DNA of 64,000 nucleotides from Raillietiella orientalis (taxonomy: Eukaryota), in NCBI GenBank assembly GCA_036172245.1, contig JAYWIR010000115.1:1-64000 (forward strand). The letters are read 5' to 3'. The position numbers and the translations under genes were made by a program. The notes beneath the pieces were generated by a model that was not told where the DNA came from, made no database searches, and worked only from the letters and a program-made list of their open reading frames with translations. The first letter of the stretch is position 1. Each line of letters starts with the position of its first letter. Shown one piece after another: positions 8,906-59,269 of the stretch.

Positions 8906-8949
8906 GACTGTGTGTAATCAGTTTTTTTTTGAGAGAGCCTTCTGTTGAT

Positions 8950-16950: not shown

Positions 16951-16979
16951 GAAATTTAGAATTATCAGGAAATCCACAT

Positions 16980-20178: not shown

Positions 20179-21803
20179 GTCCGGAACAAAAGCCAAATCC
20201 ATGCCGCGCGTAAAAACTCTCCGAGAATGTACGGTTACGCTGGAGCGCATGGACGTTCCCGCCGACACCACCGGAGGCAATACGGCTTCAATCGATTTTC
20301 CCACCGCGGCGGATACGCGCAGAAACCCAACCCCTGCCGGCGAAGAGTGTCAGCCGGGCGACAAACTCGCCGAAACTGAGGACGCACCCTTCGAGAAGGC
20401 CGCGGAGGAGCTTCCGGCAACGCTTGCCGAACGCGAGAACCCCTCGCGAGAGGGGTTGCGTAGGCCGGCAGCAGCTAAAATAGCCCCCAAAGGTGAGTCA
20501 GACCGAAAGTCCGGAAGTGCATCCTTCTCTGCGGAAGCATCATCAAGGAAAGCGGGCCGAAAATCTTAGAAACCCTGAAGGTGCATTCCGCCTCCGCGCG
20601 AGGTGGATGCAATGCACGAGAACCAGTGGACGGCAGCGTAGGAACCCAAGTCGAGCATTACCCACGTGCGGAAGCCGACGAGGAGGCGACTTCAATAAAG
20701 GAGGGTATTCAGGGGTCAGCAGCGCCCCCTGAAACCGCCGAACCTGAACCATTCGCACCAATGGATGTGGGCCAACAGGTACGAACAACACCCCCTTCGC
20801 ACGAGCAGCCGGAGACGTCAACACGTAAGAAGGATGAGGAGTTCGTGGGCAAGACGCCAACCCCGTCCAGCGACCCAGCCCAAGAGGTGACGGGAGCATC
20901 ACTGCCAGGTTTCCAGGAATAACACCTGGACTCGCCTCTCACGGTCGGATCCGTGCGGCCTGTAGGAATGTCAAGGGGCTTCGCGACGACGGAAACAGAC
21001 AAGACACAGCCGCCACCTTACGAGATTTCGACCTGGTACTTTTGCAGGAGATCCACGTGATCACCGCAAAAGACGCGCAGGAGATCGAAACGATCGCAAG
21101 GGGGCCGTTGAACTGGCGATGCGGCGCTCGCAACACCTGTGGGGTCGCGTTCTTTCTGAAGCCAGCCATCCACGCCGCCGTGAAGGGCGTGCGCTTTGGG
21201 GACGATGGACGGATCGGCCAACTGACTCAGAGATGGTCCGATTCGATCGACCTCATCGTCACCAATGTGAACGCTCCTAGCGGAAACAAGTTTACCAGCA
21301 GCGCAACGCGTTACTAAAAACCTTGAAGCACGAATGGCTGGTGGACACGTACCAGCGAAAGGCGCATCTTATAGCAAGGGATTTCAATGCCCGCCTGCTC
21401 TCAGATCAGCACGGAGCACAGGAGAACGCGATCAACGAGTTGTGCGCCGCCATGTGCGCGCACAAATTGTTCACAGAAATACAAGGGATGGTCAGCAGCG
21501 TGGACCACGTCTTCCTCGACGAAGACCTGTGTACACGGGTGGGAAAACGAGGGACACTTGAATCGACGCTGTCGGTTCATTCCCGGTTATTATTCGAGAT
21601 GCGCCCGCGCGACAAGAGACCTCAGTCCAGGGATTGGCGTATGCCAGGGGACTGAACGTACCTGTGAGCAGCGAAAGAACATCTTCGCGAATTCCTGCGA
21701 GGCGTCACCCTCCAGAGTCTCGCGGATTGGGAACTATTTAACGACTCGGTCCGGGAGTTCTGCGAGCAGTTACCTATGCAAAGTCTGCCCTGGGGATTTG
21801 GCG
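20179..21803 (+). mobile_element. Subfamily D element fragment (ORF1 C-half, EN, linker up to GFG)
   Basis: RECTVTLERM, FEKAAEEL; ORF1 stop 20920-20922; EN fragments 21042-21655; ends at GGATTTGGCG. Confidence 0.88.
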
Positions 21804-24800
21804 TTATCACCCGGGTACGCCCGGTGCGTTTATTCGCAAACTCTACATGCGTGGTACGAGGCCCCTCCACGGCCGTAAACACAGCACCTGTCAAGACACT
21901 GAGACGCAGCCCGGCGTGGCAATCCCCAACAGCGATGGGGGATGGAAAGAAGACAAAAAGAAAAATAAAAAAAGAAACAAAAAGATGTTGGAGGGCAGGC
22001 TAAGGATCACTGGTCGCTGTGGAGAGGGCCCATCCGTCGAACGAAGCCCTCGAGGTCTGTCTGAATTTTCCCTACATAAGGCCATCCGGCAGCTCTCCGC
22101 AAGAAGCGTTGGGCATACGGGATGACATCCCTCGCCTGTGGACACACTCCTTCGTTGTTGGCGTCGCTCCATGCCGCCGCGATGCCACGGACGCAGCACA
22201 AGACTGCGATGGCTGCGGCTGGCTGCAGTGCGTCCTTCACGAAGAGGGTCCGAAGAACGTCTGTGGGGGTGCTGCCCGTATGGAGCCCGAGGGTCGTCCC
22301 GAACCGTTTTTAAAGGGGTCGGAGGGCAGCACAATCCACAATAAGGTGAGGAAGCGAAACCCGCTCCCCGCACCTGGCACACGCAGGATCCACAGCTCCC
22401 CTCGCCCAGAGATAGCGGCGCGCGTTGCAGGGTAGACCCCAGGGCAACAGGAGCAACGCCGACTCTTGGCACTTGAGAAGCAGGATCCTAAATTCTTTCA
22501 TCTCCGGGGGCAATTCAGCTCATCCCTAGATATGGCGAGCAGCTCGCCCAATCTTCCTAATCCTCGCGGCTGGACGCTTGGTGTCGTGGCGTCGGCCAGT
22601 TCTCCTGTTGTCCAGCCGCTACTCAACTTCTCGCGTCCCTCGATGCAGCAGGAGACTTGCGACCTTGGCGTCCGGCTGCTGTGAAGTGCCCTTCTCAGGA
22701 AGGGCAGCGCCGTACCTAGGCAGGTCGTCTCTGCCCACGTGCATCTTGCTGGACTCTCCAGGAGATTCCGCAGTGTGCAGCGGGCGTAGGGGCTGCATCG
22801 GAAACGATTCCACGTTTCCTGGCTCCTCTGGTTAACCGCTGCCCACGTTTTAATATTCTCCTCCATCCAGGCGGAGGAGTTGGCGGGGCAGCAAACCATC
22901 CAGCTGTTCTCCTTGGCCAATGTTGCCAAGCGCCCGAGCAGTAGGCCGCATCTTCGCATCTTCCGGCCACGGCTCAGAAGAAAAGACGCGAGTCCATCGC
23001 ACCGGGACACACGGCTGGCCAGGAAGCGGGCCGGAGTGCACCAAGGGGTGCTCCACATCTTCGCTGCGGTGGCGAGGGTTCGCCACCGCAGCTGCTTCTC
23101 CACGCGCTCCAGCGTAAGGAGGCCAAGACCGCCGTCCCGACGCGGAGCGCACAAGTCCTTCAGTGGGACTCGGGGCCTCCCCTTGCCCCAAAGGGCGATA
23201 CGGAGGAGGTCCTTTGTCCTCTTCTTGGATTCCACGGTGAGGGGGCAAACAAAAAGCAAGGGGCTGAGAATAAGGGCCGCGAAGGCGTTCCAAACCGCGG
23301 CCCGTTCCGGCAAGTGAAACTTGCCTTCCAGGAACGGGCCGATCGCCTTTTCGACTTTTTGGAGGCAGCTGGACCACGGTTCCGCAGAGAAGAAGTCCCC
23401 CAACGGCACACCGAGGTACTTGATGCACCTCACCGTGGGGATACCCAGACGGACCCAGTCCTGCTGCCCTGCCCACGCCGCACCTATTGGCACAACCGAC
23501 GACTTCGCCCTGTTAACCTGCAGTCCGATCCCGCGGCTGAGCAGATCGAAGAAGTCTCCGACCACCTTTGCCGGGGTAGACATTAGCAACAACAGCAGAA
23601 GATCGTCGGCGTACGCTGCTACGGCGGGCGTGCCGGGGCACGAGCTCGGTAAGGGGGCCAAAGTCACCCTGTACGCTCTCAGCACCAACTCAAAGTATGT
23701 GCTGAAGAGCAGGGGTATGAGGCTATCTCCCTGCCTTATGCCCCGCCGCACCGGCACGCCATACACCTTGTGACCGCGGAAAGAGACGGTCATCATCGCA
23801 TTCCGACAGCAAGAGCGCAGGTAGGAAAGCAGAGAGGGTGGGAAGCCCACGCGACGCAAGAGCTCTAAGAGTAGTTCCTAGTCTACACAGTCGAACGGCA
23901 TGTGGACATGGACTGCGAGCGCGAGGGCACCCTTCCCCGCCCGGGGTTTTCTTTTCAGCCCGGATTGCGGGCCCAATGTGGGGTTGCTGACTTTCATTAT
24001 CCCTTTCTTCTCTCTTCTCTGCAGGTGCATCCATGTGCTTTCGAAGGAGAGGTTGGCATCCATACTTCTCCCGGGAACAGCATAAGTCTGCTCCGGGCTA
24101 ATTACGGATCCTGCCACCTGCCCCAGACGCGAAGCTGATAGCCCTGCTATTAACTTGACGTCTGTCTGCACGATCGTGATAAGACGCTAGTTCTTTACAT
24201 ATCTAAGGTTTCCCCCTTTCGGAAGGAGCCTGACTCTGGCTGACCGAAACGAGGCGGGAACATCGCCTTCGTCTCGGATCAGCCTGAACAACTTAAGCAA
24301 CAGGGGTTCCAGCTCTTCCGCGAAGCTCTAAAAGAACTCCGCGGGGAAGCCGTCTTCCCCTGGAGCCCTACGCCTTTTAAGCCTTTTGATACCGGTGAGA
24401 ATTTTGCCGGTGGTAAAAGGCTGGTCAAGGCTTTCCATCTCCTCCTCCACTATTGCCGGGGCACCATCCGGAAGCAAGCGCCGAAAGGCGTCTCGATCCG
24501 GAAGCTTCCTGGTGTGAAGGGAGGAATAAAAACCCCGCATGAGATGTAGTACCGACTCCGGGGACGAACATTCCCGGCCCTGGTCGCCCAGCAAGCTGGC
24601 CGACCCGGATTGCCAGGCCTGGCGTTCGGCCCCGGCGCGGTACTCGGCCAGGCGACGGACATTAGGGATTCTCTCGTACCTACGAGCCTGTAAATAAGCC
24701 CGATGCTTGCGAGGACCGTCGCCGAATCCGGAAGCAGGCGGTTTAAGGGGAACTGCTAGCAGAACTACCGGACCAAGGCCATAAAAAGGTCCCAATCCGT

Positions 24801-24815
24801 AAGACTCTGGAGCGT
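21804..24815 (-). mobile_element. 3' half of an element (linker, RT, zf-RVT, 3' end)
   Basis: ORF 22498-23859 with GIRQGDSL, YADDLLL, KYLGV; terminal AATAAA (21829-21834) + CCGGG-CGTA-CCCGG hairpin. Confidence 0.92.
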
Positions 24816-25597
24816 CGAGCGGACGTGTCTTTTCGCTGCTCCTGAGTTTCATTTCCATTGGTGCTTGCGCGTGGTGTGGGTGGAGGATTAGGCAGCAATG
24901 CCTGATACCATCACCGACGAGGATCCGGGGGCGATGACCTCATTGCCCCGGAGGAGTTGGAGGTGGGGCTTCCGCATCAGTGGAGGCTCCCGAGAGCACG
25001 GATGCGGCCCCGGCCCTACCCAGGGCTTGGAACACCGTGGCTGCGGCACCTACGTCAGCGGAAACTCTACTCCTTTTGTCGATTACGACGAGGTGCTTGG
25101 CGGCCTGAGTGCAGCGCGAGAGACGGTTCGCGAATGGTGTGAGTTTCCCCACAAACTCACCTTCAACGGTGAATCCGTTGACGTGCAGTACGTGGGGAAA
25201 CCCAAGTTATGCGGCTGCTGCAGCAGCTTTGGTCACCTTAAAATGAGGTGTCTGAGCGTGCAGTGCCAGCAATGTGAACAAGCAGGCACACCCGTCTGAT
25301 GTGCCCCCAAAACACAGTTCGCGTTATGTCCGCAAAAAACGCGAGTAAGCGCGCGGCTAAAAAAAGAAAGAAGTTGGCAGCTCGTGCTGCTGCTAAGGAA
25401 TTCACCTACGCCACCAAGGCGAAGGCCAGCCCCGACACCCCGGCGAAAAACGCCAAAAAGGTCGAGGGTGAGGGTCAAGAGCCAGGTTGGCAGAAGGTCG
25501 ACTCCAAGAAGAAGTCCTCTAAGAAGGGTAAAAACGTACAGAAACGGAACGAAACCGCTTCGCGCCGCGAAAAAACCAAAACCTGCTGCGTCGTCGT
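24816..25597 (+). mobile_element. Subfamily B element, 5' part (ORF1 with internal deletion); continues at 36965
   Basis: GAGCGGACGTG at 5' end; CGCCSSFGHLKMRC knuckle; ends in 10-bp TSD GCGTCGTCGT (25588-25597). Confidence 0.88.
25588..25597 (+). repeat. 10-bp target-site duplication GCGTCGTCGT (partner 36965-36974)
   Basis: Exact direct repeat flanking the subfamily C element; single copy in the uninterrupted paralogue near 60601-60611. Confidence 0.9.
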
Positions 25598-28307
25598 TTA
25601 TGACACGGTTGCGCCGGGACGTTTATTAAAATATCAACTAAGAACTGTGTTCCCAGGCAAGGGGAACGGAAAATGGGGAGTAGATTTCCCGGAACGCAGT
25701 ACGGGCACACTGAGAGTTCGGAACGGGAGGGGGTGGGACAATAAATAAACAAACTGGGTGGGGGGGCGCAGACAGGGGTATACCGTCTAACCGTTGCTAT
25801 TCTCAGAACCGGCGGTGAATGCCGCGGATCTCCATCCTCACTTCTGCTCCAAGATGTGGCCACCCGGCAGCCATTTGCAGGTTGCAGGCTGCGGTGTCCG
25901 GGACCGATGTTGGGACTGCTCGCCTCTGCAATACGTGACGGGCCCTGACAATGGCGCGGACGCAGCGGATAATTGCGATGACCGCTCCAAGAGAAAGTCC
26001 GCCACGCGTGTAGAAGCGGCGCATCCAATCCAGTGCGGTGCGTCCAGGGTGCAGGAGCGCTGGAGACAGCCGCTGCCACAGCTCCTGGAGGGCACCGCAC
26101 TCAAACAGCATATGCGGAAGCGATTCTACCGCTCCGCATTTGGTACAGTCCGGAGACGCAATCCCCCCGGGAATCAGTTGCGCCCGCTGGTTGCAGTACA
26201 AACCCCAATGCACCAGTAGAAAAGCGTCCTGCTTCCACCGAAGGGGGAAGTGAGTAGCGTCCAAGCACGCAGAAGGGACCACAAGTTCATCGGTGGGCAC
26301 CCCGAGGAGCTCACTCCACCGTAGAAGCCCCTTTGCAAAAATGCGAGGTGAGGCAGCGTCTGCCACTTCGCAAGTCCGCCAGCCGCCCAGCAGTCGGGTT
26401 TCGCCTGCGATTTCGCAAGTGATCTCTCACCTCGCTGGCAGGTCACTGTCATCTCGCACCATCAGTGCACACAGTACTTCGGCGAGTGGCGTAGCGGCTA
26501 GGCGTGTCCACTGGTCCTGGTCTTCCAGCACCTCCCCCACTGGACAGTACGGGGAAAGTTTCACGCAACGGAGTTCCAAACGGGACACATCCTGTTGCGC
26601 TGCCCAGGACGATAAGGCTTCCTGCCTCCAGGCGTTGAAGTTCGTCGGCCGGCAGGAGATCCACTCATGCTTTCCCAGAAGCGTGGCGAGCTGCTTCAAA
26701 GGGAAGCCGAATCCTCTCTGGGCGCGCTCCGTGCGCAGATGCAACGAACGTAGTCCGTCGCCACCCGTGCTGCGCCGCAGCAGCAGCCGCGCTAAAGCAC
26801 ACCAGGGAGTAGTCCAGAGCTGCGCACAAAGTGCCAGCATGCGGAACTGCACTAGCAGTCCGATCCACTCCAGCGTCAGGATGCCCAATCCTGCATCCCG
26901 CCGAGGAGCCGCCGAGTCCTTCAGGCGCATCCTTGACCTCGCCGGTCCCCAGAGGGCGTTACGCAACAGGCGTTGCGCCCGGCGCTTAGCCGAGTAGGGA
27001 GGGGGACAAACAAAAAAGAGGGGACGGAGGAGGGAGGCAACGAAAATGTTCCACAGAAAGGCCCGTTTCGACAGGAGAAACCTGCCGCCTTGGAACGGGC
27101 CCAGAGCAGTCTCGGCCTTGTGAAGGCAGTCCGACCACGCTTCTGCTGGACAGAAGGCGCCCAAGGAAACGCCGAGGTACTTCAAGCACCTGCCCGTGGG
27201 GATCCCCAGGTGGATCCAGTCGGACTGCCCCTCCTACGTAGAGCCAACCGGTACAACGGTTGATTTCGTCCTGTTCACGCTCAGGCCTGCTCCCCGACGA
27301 ATGTGCTCGAAGAAGTCCTCGAGCCTGGACGCCGGAGTGGACATGGGCAGCAGCAGGAGAAGGTCGTCAGCATAGGCGGCCACGGCCGGTGTTCCCGGGC
27401 AGGAGCTCGGCAGGTTGGCCAGCGTCAGCCTGTACGCCCTCAGCACCAACTCAAAGAAGATGCTGAAGAGCAGGGGGCTTAAGCCGTCTCCCGGCCTGAT
27501 ACCCCGCCGTATGGGAACACCTTACACGTGACGCCCGCCGAAAGAGATACAGCATAACGCGTGGCGCCAACAGGAGCGCAAGTAGGCGATGAGGTGCGTC
27601 GGGAGCCCTAAGCGTTTCAGAAGCTCCAGAAGGAGTTCCTGGTTTACGCTGTCGAACGCTTTACAGAGATCGACGGCGACCGCTAAGGCTCCCGGCGTTC
27701 CAACGTGCCTTGAACACCGCCGCTTTCCTTTGGTAGCGGCGATTTCGGCTGCCTGGCTCTGTTGCGCCACGCGCTGCTGCAACTCGAACCGTGTACACGC
27801 GAAGAAGAGATTCGCGTCCATGGACCGCCCAGGAACAGCATACGTCTGCTCCGGACTTACCATGGACTTTGCGATTCTCCGCAGGCGCGCGACCCATAGC
27901 CTGGAGAACAACTTGACGTCCGAATTCACTAATGTGATCGGACGCCAGTTGCTGAGGTGGCTCAAATCACCACCTCTCGGCAGGAGCCGCACCTTTGCTG
28001 AGCGGAAAGAAGCAGGAACATCTCCCGTCTCACGCATCAGCGAGAAAAGGCTTAGCACCAGGGGGACGAGCTCCGCCGCGAAGCACTGAAAGAACTCCGC
28101 TGGCAGGCCACCCTCTTCAGGCGCCTTAGGCTTCTTCAGGCCCGCTATGGCAAAAGATACTTCTTCCGCCGTGAAGGGTCAATTCAATCTGGCGCGTTTC
28201 TCCTCGTCGATAGCAGGGTTGCCCGTCGGAAAAAGCAGCTTGGAGAGACTGCGTTCCGTGGGCTCCTTTGCGTACAACGAGGAGTAGTAGCGCTTGACTA
28301 CGCGTGT
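25598..28307 (-). mobile_element. Subfamily C element, 3' half (RT, zf-RVT, 3' end); 5' half at 33876-36964
   Basis: VKRYYSSLY, NWRPITLVN, DLCKAFD, YADD, CTKCGAVESLPHMLFEC; terminus AATAAA-CGTCCCGGCGCAACCGTG-TCATAA. Confidence 0.92.
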
Positions 28308-28397
28308 ACGGCGGACGCAATTGTTGTGCGCTCCGTGGATAAGGAGTTTTTCTTTTCTGGTGTTTCGTGTGAGTTGCGCGGCCGTTGACAGGCAGAA

Positions 28398-30011
28398 ATG
28401 CCTCTGAACGCCGCAGTTTCAGGTGAGGGAGGCGGGAAGACTGCGTCTCCCAAGCCAAAGGAGGTGGGATCACGCCCCACCACTTCTTCTGAACCCGCCA
28501 CTACGGCGAGGGCCTGGAGCGCGGTGGCAGCGGCGGAAACGCCCGATGTCGCCGCCGAAATCCAATCCTACATCCAGGAGGGCTACAATCCGGCCCTCCT
28601 GTACAAGGTAGGCAATTTATATTCCCCGTTAAGGGCGAGAAAGTTCGGCAATGCCATCAAAAAGATGGACATTGCCGACCTTGAAATTCTTTGCCTCTCT
28701 ATACGGAGCGGAGGGCAGTTGGCGGAGCTCATCTGCAAGGATGCAGCTCTTACCCACAAGATGCTCTGCACGCCCGTACAATTTGAGGGCAGGAATTTAC
28801 TCCCACACACGGTGGACCACTCCATTGTGGTCCACCTAACAGGGACAACAGTGCGGATGGATGAGAACGCTATCCGCGCTGAACTGAAAAAATTCGCAAG
28901 CGTTTTCGCGATGTGGAGAAAGCCCAACACCTTCGGAGTGAACGGTGCTTTTAGTGGACGAATAGGCGCGCGCGTGACGCTTCGAGAAAGCGTACAGCTT
29001 CCCCACAAGCTCCAAATTGGCGACGAGTTCGTCGACATTTGGTTTGTGGGGAAACCTAAATTTTGTGGAAACTGTAAGTCGTTCGGGCATTTGAAAAAGC
29101 GGTGCCCGGACGCGGTTTGCCCGAAGTGCGGCGCGAAGGGCCACACCAAAGTGGTGTGCCCGATAAACGTCGCTCCAACGCCGGAACTTCCGCAAAAGAA
29201 GGAAGGGAAGGCAAAAATAGTAATAAACCCCACAAAAGGGGATCAGCCGTCGGCTCCGACAAAAGTCGCGCAGCAGGAAAGGGACTCGGTACAGGAGCTC
29301 CCGGTATAGACTGCCGACGAGGAAGGCTGGCAGCTGGTCACCCGTAAAGTAAAAATCGTTAAAAAAACCGCGCCCGCACCGGCGAAAGTGGTGAAGGGCA
29401 AGGGGAAGGTCGCGCCACGCCCAACAATCAAAGCGTGCAGCGTGGCCATCAAACGCGTGCCGGCGATCGATACTCGCTCCGCTGACGGATCGCTGCGATG
29501 TGACGTCACGCCAGCTGTTCAACACGCCGCCGCGCGAACGCCGACGCCGCGACAAAGTCGCGAGCCCAGCGTGAGCAGCGACGACCGGGACTTCAACAAG
29601 GTGGCGGAAGAGTTGGCAGCCATGCTCCAGCAGCCTCCCAAGGCCCAGAAGAAGGCCTTGAGGCGTCCGGCTGAGGCGAAAGGAACGGAGACTTCCGAGT
29701 CCGAAGCCGAAGCCGGCAACGCTCCGGCTGTCGCTCTCCCGAAGCGCAAAGCGGGCCGCAAGGTAGGCAACCCGCGGCGCTCCGCACCTCCACCGGCGGA
29801 GGAGGAAATGCGGTCGGACCACGACGACGGGGAGGCGATGTCCGCGAGGTCTCGCGACTCCTCGCCGGAGACGTCCCTCGCCAAGCAGGATCCTCCAACC
29901 ACCACCACAACCACCGACGGACCGCCTCCTTGCGAGCAGCAGCCCGTCGCAATGGATACACAACTCCCGCCTGCTGAACAGCAGGCGGAGGACGGTAAGC
30001 AAGCACAATAA
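28398..30011 (+). pseudogene. Retrotransposon ORF1 with one in-frame stop (29307-29309)
   Basis: ORFs 28398-29309 and 29388-30011 are in the same frame; CGNCKSFGHLKKRC and CPKCGAKGHTKVVC. Confidence 0.9.
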
Positions 30012-30019
30012 ACACACCA

Positions 30020-46252: not shown

Positions 46253-46260
46253 CTCTCCTC

Positions 46261-46280
46261 GAGAGCGGACGTGTTTTTCC
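46261..46280 (+). promoter_or_regulatory. Conserved 5'-end motif GAGYGGACGTGTTTT, candidate internal Pol II promoter element (representative copy)
   Basis: Recurs near 5' ends at about 78, 1610, 8109(-), 24821, 36956(-), 46267, 57634; resembles the RGACGTG downstream element of insect LINEs. Confidence 0.55.
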
Positions 46281-46354
46281 GGCGCTCCGCGAACGAGCAG
46301 CGGAAAGCGGTTTTTTTTGGTTCAGTGTGTGCTTTTTCACATCGTTGGTGTCCG

Positions 46355-48102
46355 ATGGCATCGCTGCCAGAGGACACCACGATGGAGGTAGGCGTGAGGG
46401 AGGCTAGCCCCCCCTTACTACCTACAGAATCAGGAGCATCCGCCCCAGAATCGCCCTCGTCGAAAAAGACGAGGAGCTGGAGCGCCATGGTCGCCGCGCC
46501 GAGCGCGGAAACCTTGGCTGAGCAAGCGGCCTACAGGGCCTCCGGATATAAACCATCCCTGGTTTATAAGGTAGGAAACCTGTTCGACGGTCGCACCGCG
46601 CGTGCCTTTAGCAAGGCACTACAGGAATTCCCCGTGCGTGAGGAGGATCTTGACGGCCTCGCCGTACTCAGCGGGGGGCAACGCGTGGAGGTCGTCTGCA
46701 AAGACGTAGCCCTAGCGCAGCGCCTCATCAACACCCCGCTGAATGTGGCTGGCCGAAAGATCCTACCCGTTAGCATGGACCGCTCCGTAGTGGTCCATCT
46801 AACGGGGATCACGAACCGCATGCGCTCTGCGGTGAACGCGGAATTGAAGAAATACGGAGATGTGCACGCGCTGTGGTCAAAGCCAACCATTTTTGACGGC
46901 TATAACAGCCTCTTTGGTGGCCACGCAGCAGCGCGTGTCACTGTGAACGAGGGTGCTGGGTTACCCCACAAACTGGAGGTCGGGAAGGAGCCCTTCGACC
47001 TCTGTTACGTGGGGAAACCCCGCTATTGTGGCTACTGCGATGCAGTAGGGCATGTGCGCAGGCGGTGCCCGAATATCCAGTGCCACTTGTGCGGGGAAAA
47101 GGGAAACGTCCGTTGTGTGTGCCCTAAACGCCCCACCCCGGTGCCACCGGCTGCCAAAAAGGCACAGGCGAAAAAGATGAATAAGGTCGAAAGACCTCAT
47201 CGCGAGAATGGCCGGCCCCAGCAGCCTTCTCCTCCTCCTACAACCCAGGCGGCGGCGGAAAAAACCGCGAAAGACGCGGGCGAGGAAGAAGGATGGACGC
47301 TGGTAAAGGCCAGAAAAGAAACTAAAAAGGGTTCACAAGAGAAGGCAAGAAAAAGTCGGTCGCGAAGGCGAAAAAACCTGGTCCGCGATCTAAAACTCTC
47401 CGCGAGTGCTCGGTAGCACTGGAGCGCATCAGCGTTCCCGAGGCTGCCACCCGGGGCGACGAGCCTCCCCTCGCCGTTTCCGCCGCGCCCGAGGTTCGCG
47501 ACGGCGAACCCTCTGTTTGCACAGAGGGTGACACGCGCGACACGCTCGCCGCCGGAGAGGACGCCGCCTTCGCGAAGGCGGCGGAGGAGCTCGCGGCCAC
47601 GCTGGCTGAGCGTGAGAACCCCTCACGCAAGGCCTTGCGAAGGCCGGCTCCGCCGAAGAAGGCCCCCGCAGGTGAGTGCGACCTGGGGTCCGGAAGTGCA
47701 TCCTCCTCCTCGGAGGCACCCCCCCGGAAGACGGGACGCAAGTCCCAAAAGCCGAGGAAGCGCCTCCCCTCCACGAGCGAGGAGGAGAAGCAGGAAGTCG
47801 CCGGCAGCGTGGGAATCCCGGAGGGGGAGCTCCCACTCGCGGAAGCCGTCGAGCAGGACACCCCCATGGAGGAGGGTGAGCAGGGGGGCGAAATCCCCCC
47901 TGCCGTCGCGGACCCTGAGGAGCCCACCTCTATGGAGGAGGGCCAGCAGGTAGGCGCGACCCCACCTGAGGGTGAACCGCCCGACGCGCCGTCACCGATG
48001 GAAGAAGTTGGCCAGGTGCTAGAGGCACCTGTCCCTCCTTCTCCACCAAGCGTCCCGCCCCAACAGGTGGTGGACGCCGCACAGCCGATTTCCCAGGAAT
48101 AA
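46355..48102 (+). pseudogene. Retrotransposon ORF1, frameshifted near 47340
   Basis: ATG 46355 (MASLPEDTT), SWSAMVA, CGYCDAVGHVRRRC; tail continues in the frame of ORF 47635-48102. Confidence 0.88.
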
Positions 48103-51100
48103 CACCTGGGCTCGCCTGTCTCCGTCGAATCCGCGTGGCCAGTTGGAACGTCAACGGTTTGCGCGACGACGGCAACAGACGAGATACGGCCGACACCCTG
48201 CGCGACTTCGACCTGGCCCTGCTGCAGCAGATCCACGTGATCACCTCGGCAGACGTCCAGGAGATCGAGGCGATCGCGGGGGGTCGACTGTACTGGCGAT
48301 GCGGCGCCCGCAACACCTGCGGGGTCGCGTTCTTCGTCAAGCAGGCCATCGACGCTGCCGTGAAGGGCGTACGCTTTGATGACGACGGTCGGGTCGGTCA
48401 GCTGATTCTCAGCTGGTCCGACTCGATCGAATTGATCGTCACGAAGGTGTACGCTTTCAGCGGAAAAGGGGGATACAGCGACCCTACCAGGCTGCTGGAA
48501 ACCCTGAAGCGCGATTGGCTGGCCGACACGAATGTGCGAAAGGCACACCTGATAGCTGGAGACTTCAATCTCCGTCTGCTGTCTGGTGAGCCCGAAGCAC
48601 AAGAACGCACGGCCAACGAGTTGTGCGCTGCCATGCGCACGCGCAACTTGTTGGCAGACGCGGAGGGAATGGACCGCAGCATCGACCACTTCTTCCTGGA
48701 TGTCGACCTGTGCTCACGGGTCGGCAAACGGGGAAAAGTTGCGTCGACGCTGTCGGACCATTCCAGGATCATCGCCGAGGTTTGCCCGCGCAACAAATGA
48801 CCCCCGTCCAGGGCGTGGCGCCTGCCTGGGGACTGGACGCGGCTCTCAGGTGCGAAAGAACACCTTCGCGAATTCCTGAGAGGCGTCACCCTCCGCAGTC
48901 TCCAAGACTGGGACCTCTTCAAGGCCTCGGTCCGCGAGTTCTGCGAGGAGTTTCCCCTGCACCGCCTGCCCCCCGGATTCGGTGAGGGGGCTCGGAACCA
49001 TCGGGCTTATCTACAGGCCGGCCGGTACGAGAGGACCCCGAATGTCCGTCGCCTCGCGGAATATCGAGCCGGGGCCGAACGCCAAGCCTGGCAATCCGGG
49101 TCGGCCAGCTTGCTGGACGACCAGGGCCGGGAGCGATCCTCCCCAACCGCGATCAGGCACCTCGTGCGACGTTCTTACTCCTCCCTCTACTCTAGGGCAC
49201 CCCTAGAGCGGAACGCCTCGCGGCTGCTGCTCCCGGATGGAGCCCCGGCAATAGGGGAGGAGAAGAAGATCAGCCTCAACGAGCCTTTTTCTACCGGTGA
49301 AATTCTCGCCGGTATTGAAAGGCTCAAGAGGCGAAAGGCGCCATGGGAGGACGGCCTGCCTGCGAAATTTTTTCAATGTTTCGCGGCAGAGCTGGCACCT
49401 CTGGTGCTTCAGTTGACCGGGCTGATCCGAGACGAAGGCAACGTTCCCGCCTCGTTTCGGTCAGCCCGTGTGAGGCTCCTACCGAAGGGAGGAGACCTGA
49501 GATCGTTGGGCAATTGGCGTCCGATCACAATCGTCAATACGGACGCCAAGCTGATCGCTGGACTGTGGGCTTCGCGTCTAGGACAGGTGGCAGACTCCAT
49601 AATTAGCCCGGAGCAGACGTACGCTGTTCCCGGGCGAAGTATGGATGCCAACCTGTTCTTCGCGAGCACGTGGTTCCATGTGCAGTGCTGCCTGAAAGAC
49701 ACAGGGGGAAAGATTGGCAACCCCACTTTGGGACCGCCACTGGGCTGGGAATGGATACCCGGACTGGGAAGGGAGCCCTAGCAATCGCGGTCGATCTCCA
49801 CAAGGCGTTTGACTGCGTAGAACAGGAACTCCTCTTGGAGCTCATGGGTCGCATGGGCTTCCCACCCTCCCTGATTTCCTACCTGCGCTCATGCTGGCGC
49901 AATGCCATTGTCAACATCGTCTTTTCCAGCCAACAGGTGTACGGCGTGCCGGTGAGGCGGGGCATAGGGCAGGGCGATAGCCTCAGTCCCCTGCTCTTCA
50001 CCACCTACTTTGAGTTGGTGCTGAGAGCGTACAGGGTGACTTTGGCTGCCCTGCCCAGCTCGTGCCCCGGCACGCCCGCCGTTGCAGCATACGCCGACGA
50101 TCTTCTGCTCATGTTGCCCATGTCCGCCCCGGCAGCCACAGTCGAGGATTTCTTCGACCTGCTAAGTCGTGGGACTGGACTGCGTGTAAACAAGGCGAAG
50201 TCGTCGGTCGTACCCGTGGGTGCGACGTGGGTCGGACGGCCTGACAGGATCCGCTTGGGGATTTCCACGGCCAGGTACCTGAAGTACCTGGGTGACCCGT
50301 TGGGGGACTTCTGCCTTGCAGAAGCCTGGTCAGGTCGTCTCCAGAAGGTAGAGTTGGCAATCGGCCCGTTCCTGGAAGGCAAGTTCCTTCTGCCGTAACG
50401 GACCGCGGTGTGGAACGCCTTCGCGGCTCCCATCCTCCGCGTCCTGCTTTTTGTGTGTTCCGTCCCCCGTGACATTAAAAAGAAGACAAAAGACCTATTC
50501 CGCATCGCCCTCTGGGGCAGCGGGAGGCCACGTGTGCCTCTGCAGGACTTGTGCGCTCCGCGTCGGGACGGCGGCCTTGGCCTCCTGACGCTGAAGCGCG
50601 TGGAAATCCAGCTGCGGTGGCGAACCCTCGCCATCGCAGCGAAGATTTGGAGCACCCCTTGGTGCGTTCCGGCCCGCCACCTCGCCAGGCGTGTGTCCCG
50701 ATGCGAAGGACTCGCGTCGTTTCTTCTGTGCCCTGGCCGGAAGATCCGAAGATGCGGCCTTATGCTCGGACGCATAGCAACCTTGGCGAAGACGAATGGT
50801 TGGATGGTTTGTGGCCCCGCGAACTCCTCCGCCTGGTTGGAGGAGTCTGCTGGCACATGGGCTAAGCTGAACCGGAGGAGCGAAAACCACATGAACTGCC
50901 TGCGAATCGGCCCATACGCCAACCGCACCCTGCGGGAAATACTGGAATTTCCTCGGAGTCGCAGGTGGGCGTTGACGACCCCCCTTGCTACGGCGATGCC
51001 CTACCTCCTGAGGGCGCTTCAGGATTGCCAGAAGCCGAGGTGGCAAGTCACCTGCCAGATCGCAGGCAGGGAGAAGATGTTAAGCGGCTGGACCACAGGA

Positions 51101-51697
51101 GAACTGGCGGACGCCACGACCCCGAGCGTCCAGCCGCGTGGACTAATGAGATGGGGCGAGCTGCTCGCCATCCCTGCGGATGTGCTGAAGTGGCCCCCGG
51201 TACTGAAGGAATCCAGGATCTTGCCCCTTAAGTGGCAAGAGTCGGCGTTGCTACTGCTGCACTGGGGTTTACCCTGCAACGCACGCCGCTTCCACTGGAC
51301 AAGGGGAGCTGTGGATCCTGAGTGTGTCAGGTGTGGAGAGCGGGAATCGCTCTCCCAACTTATTGTGGACTGTGCTGCCATCCGACCCCTCTGGGAATGG
51401 TTCGGGGCGACCCTCGGGCTCCATACGGGCAGCACCCCCAGAGACATTCTTCGGCCCCTCTTCGTGAAGGACGCACTGCAGTCAGCCGCAGCCATCGCAG
51501 CCTTGTGCTGTGTCCGTGGCATCGTGGTGGCATGGAGCGCCGCCAATAACGAAGAAGTGGGTCCACACGCGAGGGATGTAATCCCATACGCCCAGCGCTT
51601 CATGCGGTGAGCTGCCGGATGGCCCCATCTGGAGAATATACATACGGACCTCGAGGGCTTCCTTCAACGGATGGGCCCTCCTCACAGCGTTTAGTGA
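48102..51697 (+). pseudogene. Retrotransposon ORF2 (EN-RT-zf), few stops and about one frameshift
   Basis: ORFs 48135-48800, 49110-49781, 49670-50398, 50408-51610; YADD intact; CVRCGERES zinc finger. Confidence 0.92.
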
Positions 51698-51909
51698 TCC
51701 CTTCCCAACCCTCCAACTTCTTTTTGTCTGTTCATTTTTTTTATTTTTCTTTTTGTTTTATCCCCATCCCCCTTCGCTGCTAAGGAACGCTACGCTTGGC
51801 TGCGTCCCGGCGTCCCGGTAGGTCCAGTGCATATGGCCGTGAGCGGGGCCTTGTACCGCGGATGTAGAGTTTTTTAAAAATAAACGCCCCGGGCGTACCC
51901 GGGTGTATA

Positions 51910-53317
51910 CCTCCAAGGCTAAGAAAAAGGCAGTTAGGCGTCCGGCCTCAAGCGAGAAGTCGATAACTTCCGACACCGAAGCGCAGGCCGGAAACCAAGT
52001 TTCCATCTCCGCGGCACCCCGCCTGAAGGCTGGAAGGAAGTCCAGCAAACCCGAAAAGCCCCTCTCCAGCCCGAAGGCATGGAGATGACCTCCGACTGCG
52101 AGGGTGCCATGAGCGTGAGAGAATCCCGGGAATCGTCATTCGAGAGACCATCACGCACAGACACGGAGGAGATGGAGTTGGTTGAAGCCGGAAAGGTACC
52201 CAAGGTGCCTGAGGAGGCCGAAACCCTAATGGCCATCTTACTCGCCTCGGAAGAGGCGGCTTCCCCCACACCGTCATCTTCCCGGCAGTCATGCCGGGAA
52301 TCTCCTCCCGCCGTCGTCGGCGCATCGCCGTTTGGAACGTGAACGGCATCACAGACGCCGGCACGAGACGAGACATGACCGCCATTCTAGGATCGTTCGA
52401 CCTTGCGCTGCTGCAGGAGATCCATGTGATCTCTGCAGAACAAGCGCAGAAGATCAAACGCATATCCAAAGGGCGGCTGTGGTATCGGAGCTGAACATAG
52501 AGAAGTTGTAATCTCGCCTACCTGCTTCGGCCCGCCATCGAGGCCGCTGCCCGTGGAGTGCGGTTCGACGATCACGGTCGTGTCGGCCAGCTTACTCTAA
52601 GTTGGTCCGACTCGATCGACCTCATCGTGACGAACGTTTACGCTTCGAGCGGAGCGGAACTGACGAGCAGGAGGGCAAGGAAAGAATTTTTGCTTGCCCT
52701 CCATCGCGACTGGTTGACCGAGGCAGGCGTGCGGAATGCCCATCTGGTTGCAAAGGATTTTAACGTTCGCCTGGAACCGGATGGGCCGAATCACGAGCGT
52801 GACCTGGTCAGCGAGGTTTGCCCGGCTGTGCACAATTGTAATTTGTTGGCCAGATTATCAGGGATGGAGGACAACATCGATCAAGTGTTACTTGACGAGC
52901 ACCTGTGCACTCGTGTGGGCAGGCGCTGCAAGTTACCGTGCGAGTTGTCCTACCATCGACCAATCGTAAGTGAAATCCAGCCGCGCGACAGGGGCCCCTC
53001 TCGTCAGCGTGGGGTTAACCAGGGGACTGGCTGAAGCTCCCGGACGCGAAGGAACATATCCGCACGTTTATGCGGAGCATCAGGATGCAGACACTCCAGG
53101 ATTGGGACCGCTTCACACGGTCGGTACAGGAGGTCTGCGACCAGTTCCCTCTGCACCGCATACCTGCGGAATTTGGGGATGGGCTATGTAACGAATGAGC
53201 CTATCTGCAGGCTCGCCGTTACGCCAGGACCCCCGCCATCCGAAGGCTGGCGGAATACAAAGCGGGAGCCGAGAGGCAAGCCTACAGTCAGGATCGGCCA
53301 CCTTGCTGGACGATCAG
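51910..53317 (+). mobile_element. Subfamily E fragment (ORF1 end, EN, linker to LLDDQ)
   Basis: Colinear, highly similar copy of about 41500-42907. Confidence 0.88.
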
Positions 53318-54754
53318 CCGCGCGAGTCGCTAAAGGAATGCCGCGTTACAATAGAACGCGTTCCGTCGATCGAGCGTGGATCGGCGAACGCGACTCCCGC
53401 AACCGTCGCAAACGCCTCGGAACAACAGCAGGAAATCTGCAGCAACCATGCGAGTAGCAGCGAGGGAAAGAATTTCGCGAAGGCGGCGGAGGAACTCTCA
53501 GCCACTTTAATGCAGCCACCTAAGGCTGCAAAGAAGGCCGTCAGACGTCCAGCGGAAGTTAAGGGCCCGGAAGCTTCAGGGTTCGAGGCGGAAGCCGGAA
53601 ACCCTCCCACCGTCGCCCTTCGGAAGAGGAAGGCGGGCCGGAAGTCGCGCAACCCTATGAGCGTCGCTCCCCCTCAGGCTGAGCAGGAGGAGATGCGCTC
53701 GGATAGCGAGGAGGCGATGTCCGCGAGGTCGCGGGATCCCTCTATCGACAGCATCCGGTCGGTCCTTCCTATCGACCTCAGTCCAGCTGCAGACGTTCCG
53801 GTCGTTGCCGAAACGCCACCACCGCAGATGGACAACGACGAGCCGCCTCTCGAACAGGAGGCGGCAATACACACGCCACCACCATCATTAGTATGATGCA
53901 TGGAATCGCCTCTTGCCGGCAGCTGCGTATAGTCTGCTGGAATGTCAACGGGCTGCGTAGCGAAAGCAAGAGGCGTAGCGTGGCCGACATTCTGCGACCT
54001 TTCGACCTGGCACTTCTCCAGGAGGTGCATGTCCTCAGAGCAGAGGACGTCCAGGAAATCGAGAGGCTCACGGGGGGGAGGCTACTTTGGCGTGGTGGAG
54101 GAGATTACTCCCGCGGAGTGACCTTCCTGCTGAAGCCGGCAGTCGCCTATGCAGTGCGCAGTGCACAGTTCGAAAAGGAAGCTCGAGTCGGACAACTTGT
54201 CCTCAAGTGTTCCGAATCCATCGACCTCCTAGTTGCGAACGTGTACGCCCCCTGTACCAGCCACAGGCGCGCAGAACGCACTGCGTTCTTCGAAGCCCTG
54301 CGGCGAGACTGGCTGACCGAAGCAAGCGTGCAGCGGGCGCATCTGATAGCGGGAGACTTCAACGTCCGCCTGCTGTCGTATACGCTCGACATAAGAGCAC
54401 AATTGGTCAACGAGTTGTGTGCGGCTATACACACACGCAACTTGTTGGCCGATGAAGCCAAGGTGAGAAGCAGAATCGACCACGTGTTCCTCGATAACCA
54501 CTTGTGTACGCGGGTGGGAACTCGAAGAGCAATTGCGTCGGAGCTGTCCGATCACCCTCGGATAGTAATCAACATCCATCCGAGCGACAGAGGTCCACCC
54601 TCCGAAGCGTGGCGCCTGCCGGGAGACTGGTTGCGACTCGCAGGAGCGCGCGAACATCTGCGCGCATTCCTGCGTAGTTGCGAATTGCAGACTCTCGCTG
54701 ACTGGGAGAAAATAAAACGCTCAGTCCGAGAGTTCTCTCTCCAGGTTTCGGCGA
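53318..54754 (+). mobile_element. Subfamily A-type fragment (ORF1 C-half, complete EN, ends at GFG)
   Basis: KECRVTIERVP, FAKAAEEL; EN ORF 53893-54831 with all catalytic motifs; ends GGTTTCGGCG(A). Confidence 0.9.
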
Positions 54755-57624
54755 TGCCACCCGGATACGCCAGGACGTTTATTGAAAACATTCCGACAGT
54801 CAATACAGAACGTGGTACAAGGTTCCACTGACAGCCACGCAATACCGGAACTGCGGGGACACCGGGACGCAGCTTGGTGTGGCTGTCCTCGGCAGTGGAG
54901 TGGGATGGGGGAGAAAACAAAAATTAAATAAAGGAGAAAAACAAACCACAAAAAAAGTTTGGTGGGCCGGGAAGGGATCACAGAATACTGCTGGGAGGGC
55001 CCATCCTTTGCAGGATGCCTTCTAGTTCCATTTTCAGTTTTCCTAGATGGGACCATCGGGTACCTCTCTGCAGGAAGCGAGAAGCATACTCGTTGACGTC
55101 CCTCACGATGCAGTCTTCATCTTCGGCATCACTCCAGGCCGCCGCGATACCACGAATGCAGCAAAGTGTTGCCAGGGCTGAGGCTGGACTGAGAACGTCC
55201 CGCACGAAGACAAGACTGAAGACACATCTAACATTGCCACCATCCGGTATCCCAAGTGCCGTTTTAAGACAATCCCAAAGAATCCGGACGCAGGGCATTG
55301 AACTCAGAGGTGGGGGAGCGAATCCAGCTCCCCACACCTGGCACACGCAGGATTTACTCTTCCCCGCGTCCAGTGGAAGCTGCGCGGGTTGCAGGGTAGA
55401 CCCCAATGCAGCCACAGAAGCGCCGATTCTTGCCACTTCAGGAGAAGAATTCTGGATTCAAGTACAACCGGGGGCCACTTCAGGTCATCCAATCGAATGC
55501 CGAGCATCTCGCCCCATCTTCTCAATCCACGCGGCTGGAGACTAGGGGTCGTTGCATCTGTCTACTCTCCCATGGTCCAGCCGCTTATCATCTTCTCTCT
55601 GCCTGCGATACGGCAGCAGACTTGCCACCTTGGCTTCCGGGTTTCGTGAAGCGCCCTTTGGAGGAAGGGCATCGCCGTAACAAGGGGTGTGCCTTCCGCC
55701 TACGTGCAACTCGGTGGAAATTCAAGAATTTCACGGAGAGTTCGGCGGGCGTAAAAGCCGACTCGCAGGCAGTTCATCCGGTCTTCGCAGCTGTGGTTCT
55801 GCTTGGACCAGGTGCCAGCAGTCTCTTCCAGCCAAGCGGAGGAGTTGGCAGGGCTACAAGCCATCCAGTCGTTCTCCTTTGCCAGGGTTGCCATGCGGCC
55901 GAGCAGTAGTCCGCATCTTCGAATCTTCCGGCCAGGGCACAGAAGAAAGGATGCGAGTCCTTCGCAGCGGGACACACGCCTGGCCAGGAGGCGGGCCGGA
56001 ATGCACCAAGCGGTGCTCCACATCTTCGGTGCGATGTTGAGGGTCCGTCATCGCAGCGAAGCATGTGGAGCCTCCCCTTGCCCCAAAGAACTATGCGGAG
56101 GAGGTCCTTCGTCCGCTTTTTAGATTCCACGGGGGCGGGGCAAACAAAAAGCAAGGGGCGGAGAATGGGGACCGCGGAGGCTTTCCAAACCGAGGCTTGT
56201 TCCGGCAAGTGTAACTTGCCTTCCAGGAACGGGCCGATTGCCCTCTCGACTTTTTGGAGGCAGCTGGACCACGCTTCCGCAGGAGAGAAGTCCCCCAACG
56301 GCACACCGAGGTACTTGATGCACCTCACCGTGAGAATCCCTATACGGACCCATTACTGCTGCCCTGCCCACGTCGCTCCAACTGGCAACACTGACGACTT
56401 CGCCCTGTTAACCTGTAATCCGGCCCCACGGCTAAGTAGGTCGAAGAAATCTCCGATCGCTTTCGCCGGGGTGGACATAGGTAAGAGGAGCAGAAGATCG
56501 TCGGCATACTCCGCTACTGCTGGCGTGCGGGGCACGAGCTCGGCAAGGGGGCCAAATTCACCCTGTACGCTCTCAGCACCAAATCAGCGTAGGTGTTTAA
56601 AAGCAGGGGGCTGAGGCTGTCGCCCTGCCTTAAGCCCCGCCGCACCGGCACGCCATACACCTTTTGTCCACTGAAAGTAATCGAGATTATCGCGTTCCGC
56701 CAGCAAGAGCGCAGCTTGCTAATCAAGGAGGGTGAGAAGCCCATACGACCCAGGAGCTCCAAGTTGAGTTCCTGGTCAACACAGTCGAATGCCTTATGGA
56801 GGTCCACAGCGATCACTAAGGCCCCCTTTCTTGCATGGGATTCCCTACCCTGTTCCACTGGCGGCCTCAAAGTGGGATTGCAAATTTTCCTGTTCCCTTC
56901 TTTCCTACTCCGCTGCGCGTGCATCCATGTGCTCGCGAAGAAGAGGTTGTCCTCCATACTTCGCCCGGGAACAGCGTAAGTCTGCTCCGGGCTAATTATG
57001 GAATTGGACAACTGCACTAATCGCGACGCCCATAGTCCGGCGATCAACTTGGCGTCCGTGTTCACAATTGTGATCGGACTCCAGTTGCTTAGTTTCCTGA
57101 GGTCCGCTCCCTTCGAAAGGAGCCTTACCCTAGCTGATTGAAACAAGGCGGGAACATCGCCCTTGTCTCGGATTTGCCTTGTCAACTCGAGCACCAGGGG
57201 GGCTTGCTCTTTCACGGAACTCTGAAAAAACTCCGCGGGCAAGCCGTACTACCCTGGCTCCTTACGCCTCTTGAGCCTTTTGATACCGGCAGGAATTCCA
57301 CCGATCGTGAAAGGCTCATCGACGCTTTCTCTTCCTTTCTCACCTATCGCCACGAAACCACTCATGAGCAATCGCCGCGAGGCGTCTCATTCGGGTGGTG
57401 TTTACGCGTAAAGGGAGGAATAAAAACACCGCACGAGATTGCGTACCGCAGACGGGGACGATCGTTCGCAACGCAGGTCATCCAGCATGCAGGCTGACCC
57501 GGATTGCCAGGCTTGTCGCTCGGCTCCGGCGCGGTATTCGGCAAGGCGACGGACATTGAGTCTCCTCTCGTGACGACGCGCGTGCAAATACGCGCGTTTG
57601 TTGCGAGCCCTTTTTCCAAATCCC
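54755..57624 (-). mobile_element. 3' half of an element (from GFG linker to 3' end)
   Basis: GFGKRARNKRAYLHARR, DLHKAFD, YADDLLL, CARCGELDSLPH; AATAAA + CCTGG-CGTAT-CCGGG terminus. Confidence 0.92.
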
Positions 57625-59269
57625 TTGGCGAGTGGACGTGTTTTTCCTGAGCTCTCGAGCGAGTCGGCAGGAAGCGGTTTTTTCTCTGTGCCTTTTTGTG
57701 TGGAATATCGTTTGTGTCTCATGGTAGCGATGCCTGAGGGCACTACGATGGAGGTAGGTTTGGGGGAGGCTTGCTCACTTCCACAGCCTACAGTATCACG
57801 GGCGTGCGCCCGGAATCACCCTCGCCGCCTGAGGCGAGGATCTGGAGCGCCATGGTGGCCGCGCCGAACGCGTAAACCATGGCCGAGATGGCAGCATACC
57901 GGGCAGCTGTGTACAAGCCCAGTCTGGTATACCAGGTAGGCAATCTCTTCGACGGGCGAACTGCACGCGCTTTTTCGAAGGCGCTGCAGAACGACAACGT
58001 ATTAGAGAAGGATGTTGACGGTCTATGCTTGCTCAGCGGGGGTCAGCGCGTCGAGGTTGTCTGCAAGGACATCACCTTGGCGCAAAGCTTGATTACTACC
58101 CCGCTGAACGTGTACGGACGCAAGATCCTTCCAGTCACGATGGACCGCTCCGTGGTTAACCATCTGACTGCCATCACCAGCCGCATGACGCGGTCTGCGC
58201 TTGGTGATCAGCTAAAAAAATATGGAGCCGTTCACGCGTTATGGCCAAAGGCCACAATCCTCGATGACTACGATAGCCTTTTCGAAGGGCAGGCCGCCGC
58301 GCGCGTGACGGTGAAGAAAGATAGTGGGCTTCCCCACAAACTAGAGGTCAATGACGAAGTCGTAGACCTCTGGTACGTGGGGAAACCACGCTTTTGTGGC
58401 TACTGCAAGGCAGTAGGACACTTGCGCAAGCGGTGCCCGAACATTGTGTGCCACTTATGCGGGGAGAAGGGCCACGTGCGCCGCGTATGCCCTAAACGCC
58501 TTACTCTGGTGCTGCCTGCCGCAAAAAAAGCGCAGGCAAAACGCGGAAAATTGGTCGAAAAATCAAAGAGAGATACTGGCCGGCAGCAGCCGCTAGCCCC
58601 CGTTCCTCCCACACAGGCGTGAGAAGAAAAACCTTCCGAAGACACGGAAGTCCAGGACAACTGGCAGCTGGTTAAGGCCAGCAAGGAGAAAAAGGTGTAC
58701 CCCGCGGAACCCGCGAATGCGGTCAAAAAGACAGCCGGCAAGGGGAAAACACCTGGGCCGCGCTCCAAGACCATGCGGGAATGTACGGTGGCACTGGAAC
58801 GCATAGCCGTTCCCGAGACTGCCACCCGGGGCGACGAGCCTTCCCTCGCCGTTTCCGCCGCGCCCGAGGTTCGCGACGGCGAACCCTCTGTTTACACAGA
58901 GGGTGAGCCGTGCGAAATAGCGACGGTCGAAGTCGAGGACGCCGCTTTCGCGTTGGCGGCGGAGGAGCTCGCGGCCACGCTGGCCGAGCGTGAGAACCCC
59001 TCGCGCAAGGCCGTGAGAAGGCCGGCTCCGGCGAAGAAGGCCCCCACAGGTGAGTTAGACCTGGGGGCCAGAAGTACATCCTCCTCCTCGGAGGCACACC
59101 CCAGGAAGTCGGGACGCAAGACCCAGAAACCCAGGAGGCGCCTCCCCTCCACCAGCGAGGAGGAGAAGGAAGGAAGCAGGAAGGTAGCGGAAGCGTGGGA
59201 ATCTTGGAAGGGAAACTCCCACGCTCGGAAGCCGTCGAGCTGGCCACCCTCATGGAGGACAATGAGCAG
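57625..59269 (+). mobile_element. Subfamily D element, 5' UTR + most of ORF1
   Basis: GAGTGGACGTGTTTTT at 57630; ORFs 57879-58622 and 58695 onward paralogous to 46355-47880. Confidence 0.9.

Follow-up and report, generated by a model that had tools for sequence, protein, structure and literature searches.

Why should long interspersed nuclear elements (LINEs) of one clade join other LINEs repeatedly at the same few codons of a protein motif? We addressed this question in a nest of LINEs within a 64,000-nucleotide stretch of Raillietiella orientalis DNA (NCBI GenBank assembly GCA_036172245.1, contig JAYWIR010000115.1, positions 1 to 64,000 of the forward strand), hereafter the window. The motif, GFGEG, lies in the linker between the endonuclease (EN) and reverse transcriptase (RT) regions of open reading frame 2 (ORF2), and the elements that join their hosts there belong to a clade that we call D-type. 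Our analysis indicates that these joints are probably best explained by independent events of target-primed reverse transcription (TPRT) with a preference for the GFGEG codons.

We mapped all fragments on a nucleotide profile, or model, made from three full-length copies, E1 (1591-7024), E2 (about 28311-33878), and E3 (46253-51910, its end corrected from the 51916 first reported). All five junctions that a preliminary description of the window had assigned to the GFGEG codons were found, and all five breakpoints fall at model positions 2934-2947. The parts of the nest in which they lie are the following, where TSD stands for target-site duplication.

20176-21802, plus strand: H1, a host of the D-type clade, 5'-truncated, with the 3' end of ORF1 and EN (EN by homology to E3); cut after GGATTTGGC (21794-21802)
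21803-24815, minus strand: I1, a D-type insert whose 3' terminus is at 21803/21804 and which extends as far as model position ~2805, the point of interruption by the 5' end of KH2
24816-25596, plus strand: K, the 5' part of KH2; its 5' end, at 24816, is full-length, and its last bases are the TSD copy GCGTCGTCG (25588-25596)
25597-36964, minus strand: element m (m26 and m33898), antisense in KH2, with a 9-10 bp TSD; carries full-length E2 (~28311-33878, plus strand)
36965-38426, plus strand: H2, the 3' continuation of KH2, with EN; TSD copy at 36965-73, cut after GGATTTGGG (38418-38426)
38427-40235, minus strand: I2, a D-type insert that covers model positions 5950 to 4072; its 3' terminus is at 38427/38428
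43340-46252, minus strand: I4, D-type, host of E3; its 3' end lies in E4 at model position 3517, and its retained part opens with diverged GGAGTTAAG (reverse complement of 46244-46252)
46253-51910, plus strand: E3, a full-length D-type element (ORF1, EN, RT), joined at its 5' end to the GFG codons of I4 and adjoining the same-strand fragment F52 at its 3' end
53318-54752, plus strand: H3, a host of the E1/E2 clade, 5'-truncated, with EN; cut after GGTTTCGGC (54744-54752)
54753-57623, minus strand: I3 (I3a, 54753-56056; I3b, 56067-57623), a D-type insert in H3 and the host of I5, with its 3' terminus at 54753/54754; its retained part opens with GGATTTGG
57624-59274, plus strand: I5, D-type, whose full-length 5' end (CTTGGCGAGTGGACGTGTTTTTCC) is joined to I3 at the GFG codons

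In three junctions, which we call type A, a plus-strand host leads directly into a D-type 3' terminus that is complete and lies in reverse complement. These junctions read GGATTTGGCG (21794-21803), GGATTTGGGG (38418-38427), and GGTTTCGGCG (54744-54753), with breakpoints at 21802/3, 38426/7, and 54752/3 and hosts ending at model positions 2943-2947. The inserted 3' end comprises the hairpin CCCGGGCGTACCCGGG, GTG, and a 5-nt tail, and the last G of the type A sequence is ambiguous, being either part of the host GAG codon or the complement of the terminal C of the element. In the two type B junctions, a minus-strand D-type host meets the full-length 5' end of a plus-strand D-type element, E3 at 46253 and I5 at 57624. 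The I3 host retains GGATTTGGAAAAAGGG from 57623 downwards (GGATTTGG being the reverse complement of 57616-57623), and the I4 host retains diverged GGAGTTAAGGAAGGG at 46238-46252. As proposed beforehand, insertion at these codons separates EN from RT.

Thirteen copies span this position, with 5 occupied and 8 intact, and all 8 uninterrupted copies encode G-F-G-(E/D)-G or a slightly decayed version of it. The sites that I1 (GFGDG, 24721-24729) and E3 (GGATTCGGTG, 48975-84) themselves carry are unoccupied. Exact GGATTTGG occurs five times in the window, three times at these junctions. For five 3' ends and a 5.95-kb element, about 6e-7 triple coincidences (±1 nt, same orientation) would be expected by chance. 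Independent copies are found at the same nucleotide of the same target sequence, as in LINEs that are sequence specific in the sense of R1, TRAS, and Tx1L.

The preliminary description had argued that one segmental duplication could not account for the junctions, and the phylogenies bear this out for type A. In the tree of host EN regions, H1 grouped with E3 (100/100), H3 with E1 and E2 (99/98), and H2 with m59, E4, and F52 (100/100). Forcing H1, H2, and H3 together cost 337 log-likelihood units (approximately unbiased test, p-AU 8.5e-59), and these hosts are pairwise only 61-62% alike in the EN region. In contrast, I1, I2, I3, I4, and E3 formed one clade (100/100) in the tree of the 3' region, where D-type copies are 70-81% alike and which is less conserved between clades than EN. 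Placing I3 with E1 and E2, the clade of its own host, was rejected (p 0.002). Congruent host and insert trees, named in advance as an outcome that would speak against repeated insertion, were thus not observed. Because the hosts fall in three clades and the inserts in one, the events are independent. The type B hosts are not sisters, with I3b grouping with I1 (97/94), and the inserted 5' termini also differ. By these comparisons, a single duplicated composite is excluded for the three type A junctions and unlikely for the two of type B.

The junction geometry fits the further proposal that TPRT is primed from the host sense strand. In type A, this strand ends in ...GGATTTGGC-3' and continues as the first-strand cDNA of the insert, and the insert is therefore antisense. 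Type A junctions retain the motif on the EN side (up to GGATTTGGC) and type B junctions on the RT side (from GGATTTGG). We propose that D-type elements (E3, I1 to I5, and H1) integrate preferentially at the Gly-Phe-Gly codons of GFGEG in the EN-RT linker of their own clade and of two others. A nick in the host sense strand would fall after GG(A/T)TT(T/C)GG(C/G), at the second Gly codon of GFGEG, and the freed 3'-OH would prime cDNA synthesis on the 3' end of D-type RNA to yield a copy antisense to the host. The other strand would then be cut about 9-10 bp upstream, leaving GGATTTGGC(G) on both sides of the insert. We favor recognition by the D-type endonuclease as what chooses the site, with the enzyme possibly reading about 10 bp as do those of Tx1L, TRAS1, and R1. 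Coding constraint on GFGEG would keep the target available; GGCTTCGGAGAA is an example of a synonymous variant of the site.

From the overlap of retained host sequence, we infer a TSD of 9-10 bp for D-type insertions. KH2 is split by element m, which spans about 11.4 kb including E2 and is flanked by the TSD GCGTCGTCG(T) at 25588-25597 and 36965-36973. An empty site is present near 60602-60611 in the paralogue m59, which is 90-93% identical to KH2 and lies on the opposite strand. Elements of the nest therefore make 9-10 bp TSDs, and in this case too the insert is antisense. We also observed a joint in a public sequencing run (depth 2) in which a D-type 3' end (tail ACAAC) is followed by CCC, AACTCC..., and a D-type 5' end; the two elements are thus in tandem, and the 9-nt spacer between them resembles the reverse complement of the target.

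Several observations weigh against this reading, at least in a strict form. The TSD of about 10 bp that had been predicted agrees with retained sequences overlapping by 9 (±1) nt, but no single D-type insertion in the window has both flanks, the right halves lying outside the window or being rearranged. Likewise, the predicted site preference holds for three of five D-type 3' ends but is not absolute, with the ends of I4 (43340) and E3 (51910) lying elsewhere; D-type elements do not show strict specificity, in which nearly all copies occupy the target. The I4 end follows ...GCCAAGTTGATA in the RT region of E4 at model position 3517, and the E3 end adjoins F52, which starts at model position ~1566, after ...CCTTGGAG. 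Since the 5' end of E3 is at the site and its 3' end is not, E3 is no simple insertion without a later insertion or rearrangement. H1, itself a 5'-truncated D-type copy, starts within another element at model position ~3282. The empty site of E2 (GGTTTCGGCG) is identical to the occupied one of H3, and two more exact copies of GGATTTGGC (20192-20200, and 61521-61529 on the minus strand) are unoccupied. All copies are old (70-81% alike), and mutation after insertion therefore blurs the target. Finally, among the 7 joints listed for E3 in the public run, where only 6 of 232 loose ends were shown, none changes strand between 48982 and the 3' end, which speaks neither for nor against enrichment. 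The family is present in this run (0.06 share of words), as 359 of its contigs are at least 80% like E3. At the off-site ends of I4 and E3, TTG still lies 2-4 nt before the nick (..TTGGAG and ..TTGATA).

Comparison of 51906-51925 with 41490-41510 shows that F52, which is on the same strand and 89% identical to E4, takes the place of the remainder of I4. The E3/F52 join may reflect a rearrangement, or the same nick may later have received another insertion.

H1 and H3 are both 5'-truncated near the end of ORF1 (20176-20210 and 53318-53350), within about 10 codons of each other (...KTLREC... and ...LKECRVTIER...). Reverse transcription may preferentially stop there, or the agreement could be coincidental. 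A candidate sixth junction at the GGATTTGGC of 20192-20200, about 16 nt from the boundary between m19 and H1, was rejected; this sequence is the ORF1 of H1 itself read antisense (Lys-Ala-Lys-Ser codons) and is colinear with E3 and I5. At 59256-59274, I5 (plus strand, broken at model position ~1844) meets m59 (minus strand, broken at ~2837). Because neither side is a natural terminus, this junction is not a TPRT product.

Site choice could also reside in the RNA. A read-through transcript would carry a 3' flank of antisense host EN sequence (GCCAAAUCC...), which could anneal to the sense strand of a related LINE and position priming; the source would be D-type copies already in the GFGEG site, and a short motif, such as TTGG, would then suffice for the endonuclease. 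Pairing of a read-through 3' flank with the target is known for R1/R2-type elements. Three of the five events occurred in D-type hosts (H1, I3b, and I4), where complementarity would be longest, and the off-site ends after ..TTGGAG and ..TTGATA suggest that nicking needs little sequence. However, H2 and H3 are only 61-67% like D-type elements in the EN region, and no read-through RNA was seen, although none was sought. In 10 of 11 aligned ends, an AATAAA precedes the terminus by 26 nt, suggesting transcripts that stop at the boundary of the element, which argues weakly against read-through. We regard RNA-guided homing as the main rival but as unlikely on balance. Much less probable is that no sequence recognition is involved and that the GFGEG region is a structural or chromatin hot spot, or that insertions elsewhere were lost and retention is biased in an environment made only of LINEs. 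Nearly all surrounding sequence is LINE, which leaves an insertion nowhere else to land, and 8 of the 12 motif-defined 3' ends adjoin antisense LINE hosts at various positions. Against this, the coincidence is exact to the nucleotide in three diverged hosts, given the chance expectation above, and the use of another exact nucleotide by another clade argues for specificity encoded by the element rather than a shared fragile spot.

One ancestral composite, made of a host EN part and an inverted D-type 3' part and multiplied through segmental duplication or as a chimeric master that retrotransposed, would account for alignments that run colinearly across the junctions at 67-76%, and the nest does contain recent duplicates (KH2/m59, 90-93%; E4/F52, 89%). 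Each host is nearest to a different uninterrupted element, however, with host monophyly rejected as described above and the inserts forming one clade. KH2 possesses a 5' end of its own, later received a TSD-flanked insertion of its own, and is therefore a real resident element rather than a transduced flank. These results make a shared composite highly improbable. We give still less credence to an assembly artefact, in which repeats of a collapsed LINE cluster would be mis-joined. The region is highly repetitive, but mis-joins link homologous sequence in the same orientation, not a complete 3' terminus to an antisense motif three times over among copies 61-75% alike, and the TSD-flanked insertion with its empty paralogous site is a biological structure. 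Inversion within a single element, or twin priming, was ruled out by the geometry and the trees, and 3' transduction of host sequence was ruled out by hosts of three clades and by KH2 as a complete resident element. Independent, site-preferring TPRT thus remains the reading that we prefer.

A second recurrent site came from E2-type elements. Full-length E2 lies on the plus strand, antisense inside element m, and meets m33898 at 33878/33879. The other occurrence is the following.

62884-63999: host p62884 (plus strand, to 63929) joined to a minus-strand E2-type 3' end (63930-63999)

The junction at 63929/63930 is at the same host nucleotide as that at 33878/33879, and the E2-type tails GCAAAC and ACAAAC join m-type hosts after ...GCAGCCAAA and ...CCAGCCAAT, respectively; TTTGGCTG.. 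is the flank predicted for E2-type insertions in m-type hosts. Between the two cases, 3 of 69 positions differ on the insert side (96% alike) and 22 of 93 in the host flanks (76% alike; Fisher p 7e-4). Because the host flanks have diverged more than the insert sides, close relatives hit this second exact site independently; it lies about 190 bp downstream of GFGEG, and both inserts are likewise antisense. The host protein is colinear across E2 (...ECSVAAK | RTRVVKRYY), and there is therefore little or no TSD at E2.

The two sites together raise the tentative idea, to which we give somewhat less than even weight, of a guild of mutually parasitic LINE subfamilies, with every subfamily homing antisense to its own exact nucleotide in sibling LINEs. 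D-type elements would use the GFG codons and E2-type elements the position about 190 bp downstream, with targets in the coding region of the EN-RT linker or the N-terminal part of RT, and homing would proceed through an evolved endonuclease or RNA-target pairing. If this is true, the target is an essential protein motif that victims cannot easily mutate away, and each hit splits the ORF2 of a competitor, builds a staircase nest, and confines the family to a safe haven, with the nest possibly being a centromere-like cluster.

Outside about 8.9-17.2 kb, the window consists almost wholly of fragments of one superfamily of retrotransposons that lack long terminal repeats (non-LTR), with 55-63% GC. 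The stretch at 8900-17200, embedded in the LINE cluster, has 41-45% GC and is without LINE homology and without convincing ORFs; its observed/expected CpG ratio is 0.85 against about 1.0 in the LINEs, whose CpG is not depleted. A Pfam scan of 19 long ORFs found PF03372 (apurinic/apyrimidinic endonuclease [APE]-type endonuclease) in 5, of which 3 had no other listed match, and PF00078 (reverse transcriptase) in another 5, of which 3 exceeded the Pfam cut-off; zinc-knuckle matches in ORF1 were weak and limited to 2 ORFs. E2 carries EN and RT in one frame with three stops in 1067 codons, and the N-terminal half of ORF2 matched human L1 ORF2p (1.3e-33). With EN placed N-terminal to RT in ORF2, these elements belong, by their sequence, to the APE-type non-LTR retrotransposons, or LINEs. 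Their insertions carry hallmarks of TPRT, namely 5' truncations, a defined 3' end, and the TSD of element m. Nesting reaches at least seven levels, with H1 entered by I1, I1 by KH2, and so on through I2, E4, and I4 to E3.

All subfamilies share a 3' end, found 12 times in the window, that consists of AATAAA, a short GC hairpin, GTG, and about 5 nt usually ending in AAC; none of the 12 has poly(A). The hairpin, CCCGG-loop-CCGGG, is conserved across subfamilies (e.g., 51880-51910). Folds of the last 41 nt gave stems of 5 to 9 bp with z-scores of -1.65 to +0.08, indistinguishable from shuffles. This conserved AATAAA/hairpin/GTG structure is probably an RNA element recognised by RT. The D-type clade contributes five of the 12 ends (E3, I1, I2, I3, and I4), all with complete termini (GGGTG and 5 nt) and described by the pattern AATAAACG..CCGGG..CCCGGGTG plus 5 nt. 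A motif resembling GAGTGGACGTGTTTTTCC is present at full-length 5' ends. Besides the 3' ends that adjoin antisense hosts, two lie directly before the 5' end of a same-strand element (head-to-tail), that of E1 is separated from an antisense fragment by about 11 nt resembling a 5' end, and that of E3 adjoins a same-strand fragment.

Head-to-tail arrays of E1-type elements occur at 51-76, 1581-1603, 8111-8144 (minus strand), and 7019-7035, where the 5' end motif of the next copy comes within about 15-30 nt of a 3' terminus. In these arrays, two of the 3' flanks open with identical GCGGACGACCG. Re-use of a duplicated target and template jumping are both possible origins.

Searches beyond the window yielded little. 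Protein searches with the EN and RT ORFs gave 2 weak matches and one 62% relative, and the ESM Atlas returned only generic EN clusters. The chimeric ORF across the H1/I1 junction had no protein match except 2 spurious repeat proteins, one of them read as a plant NLR/LRR protein. The 3'-end pattern of the family had 0 matches in each of metagenome, viral, and prokaryote-genome contigs, and the linker-region profile found only 7 distant loci (26-43% identity), none of them useful for junctions. The literature listings that were searched showed no paper on a LINE directed at the ORF2 codons of other LINEs, which is weak evidence of absence.

The targets of known site-specific LINEs are multicopy genes of the host, repeats, or, in the case of Tx1L, a DNA transposon. 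If our reading is true, the D-type elements provide a clear case of homing by a retrotransposon on retrotransposons, in which the target, an ORF2 codon motif of about 10 bp, is held by protein constraint. They would also offer a nucleotide-level mechanism for building self-nesting LINE clusters (Zepp-like and possibly centromeric) and a small EN/target pair, perhaps with a second from E2-type elements, for studying how APE-type endonucleases gain specificity. Without genome-wide enrichment, the case would be a local curiosity of one LINE nest.

Among known systems, inverted LINE segments joined head to head reportedly arise by twin priming of L1, as attributed to Ostertag and Kazazian in 2001. 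In that process, the 3' end is at the outer flank and both parts derive from one RNA, whereas in the nest it is the inner junction that holds the complete 3' terminus, and the clades of host and insert differ. The R1-clade elements R1, TRAS1, and SART1 insert with precise 3' junctions and with a fixed TSD, which for R1Bm is a 14-bp region, and their EN determines the site, according to the sections of PMC1919474 that deal with them. Their targets are ribosomal DNA or telomeric repeats, which are multicopy sequences of the host, whereas D-type elements target other retrotransposons and their specificity is a preference (three of five 3' ends).

In genome architecture, the nearest likeness is with Zepp and ZeppL of green algae, which form nested, self-targeted clusters that are GC-richer than their surroundings, as is the nest described here. 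Zepp has poly(A) tails, whereas the elements of the nest lack poly(A), occupy exact nucleotide positions, are antisense, and use clade-specific sites; we liken the two by architecture. Zepp/ZeppL clusters are described, in the portions of PMC8226300 and PMC3446292 on these elements, as nested insertions into existing copies that form GC peaks, with LINE elements in Coccomyxa at 61% GC against 53% in the surroundings. Zepp arrays consist mostly of 3' ends in tandem, as Craig et al. state in citing Higashiyama 1997.

Functionally, Tx1L of Xenopus laevis is nearest, as it is likewise a LINE aimed at a specific sequence inside another mobile element. In the account of its endonuclease in PMC1919474, this APE-type LINE inserts into the Tx1D transposon and its EN reads about 10 bp around the nick; the same source describes the APE-type ENs of Tx1L, TRAS1, and R1 as reading about 8-10 bp and determining the insertion site. 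In contrast to Tx1L, the target here is a protein-coding ORF2 motif of sibling LINEs, including members of the same clade, and insertion is antisense and disrupts the EN-RT frame. With Tx1L and Zepp as the known examples, the D-type case represents a new form of sequence-specific, self-targeting LINE behavior.

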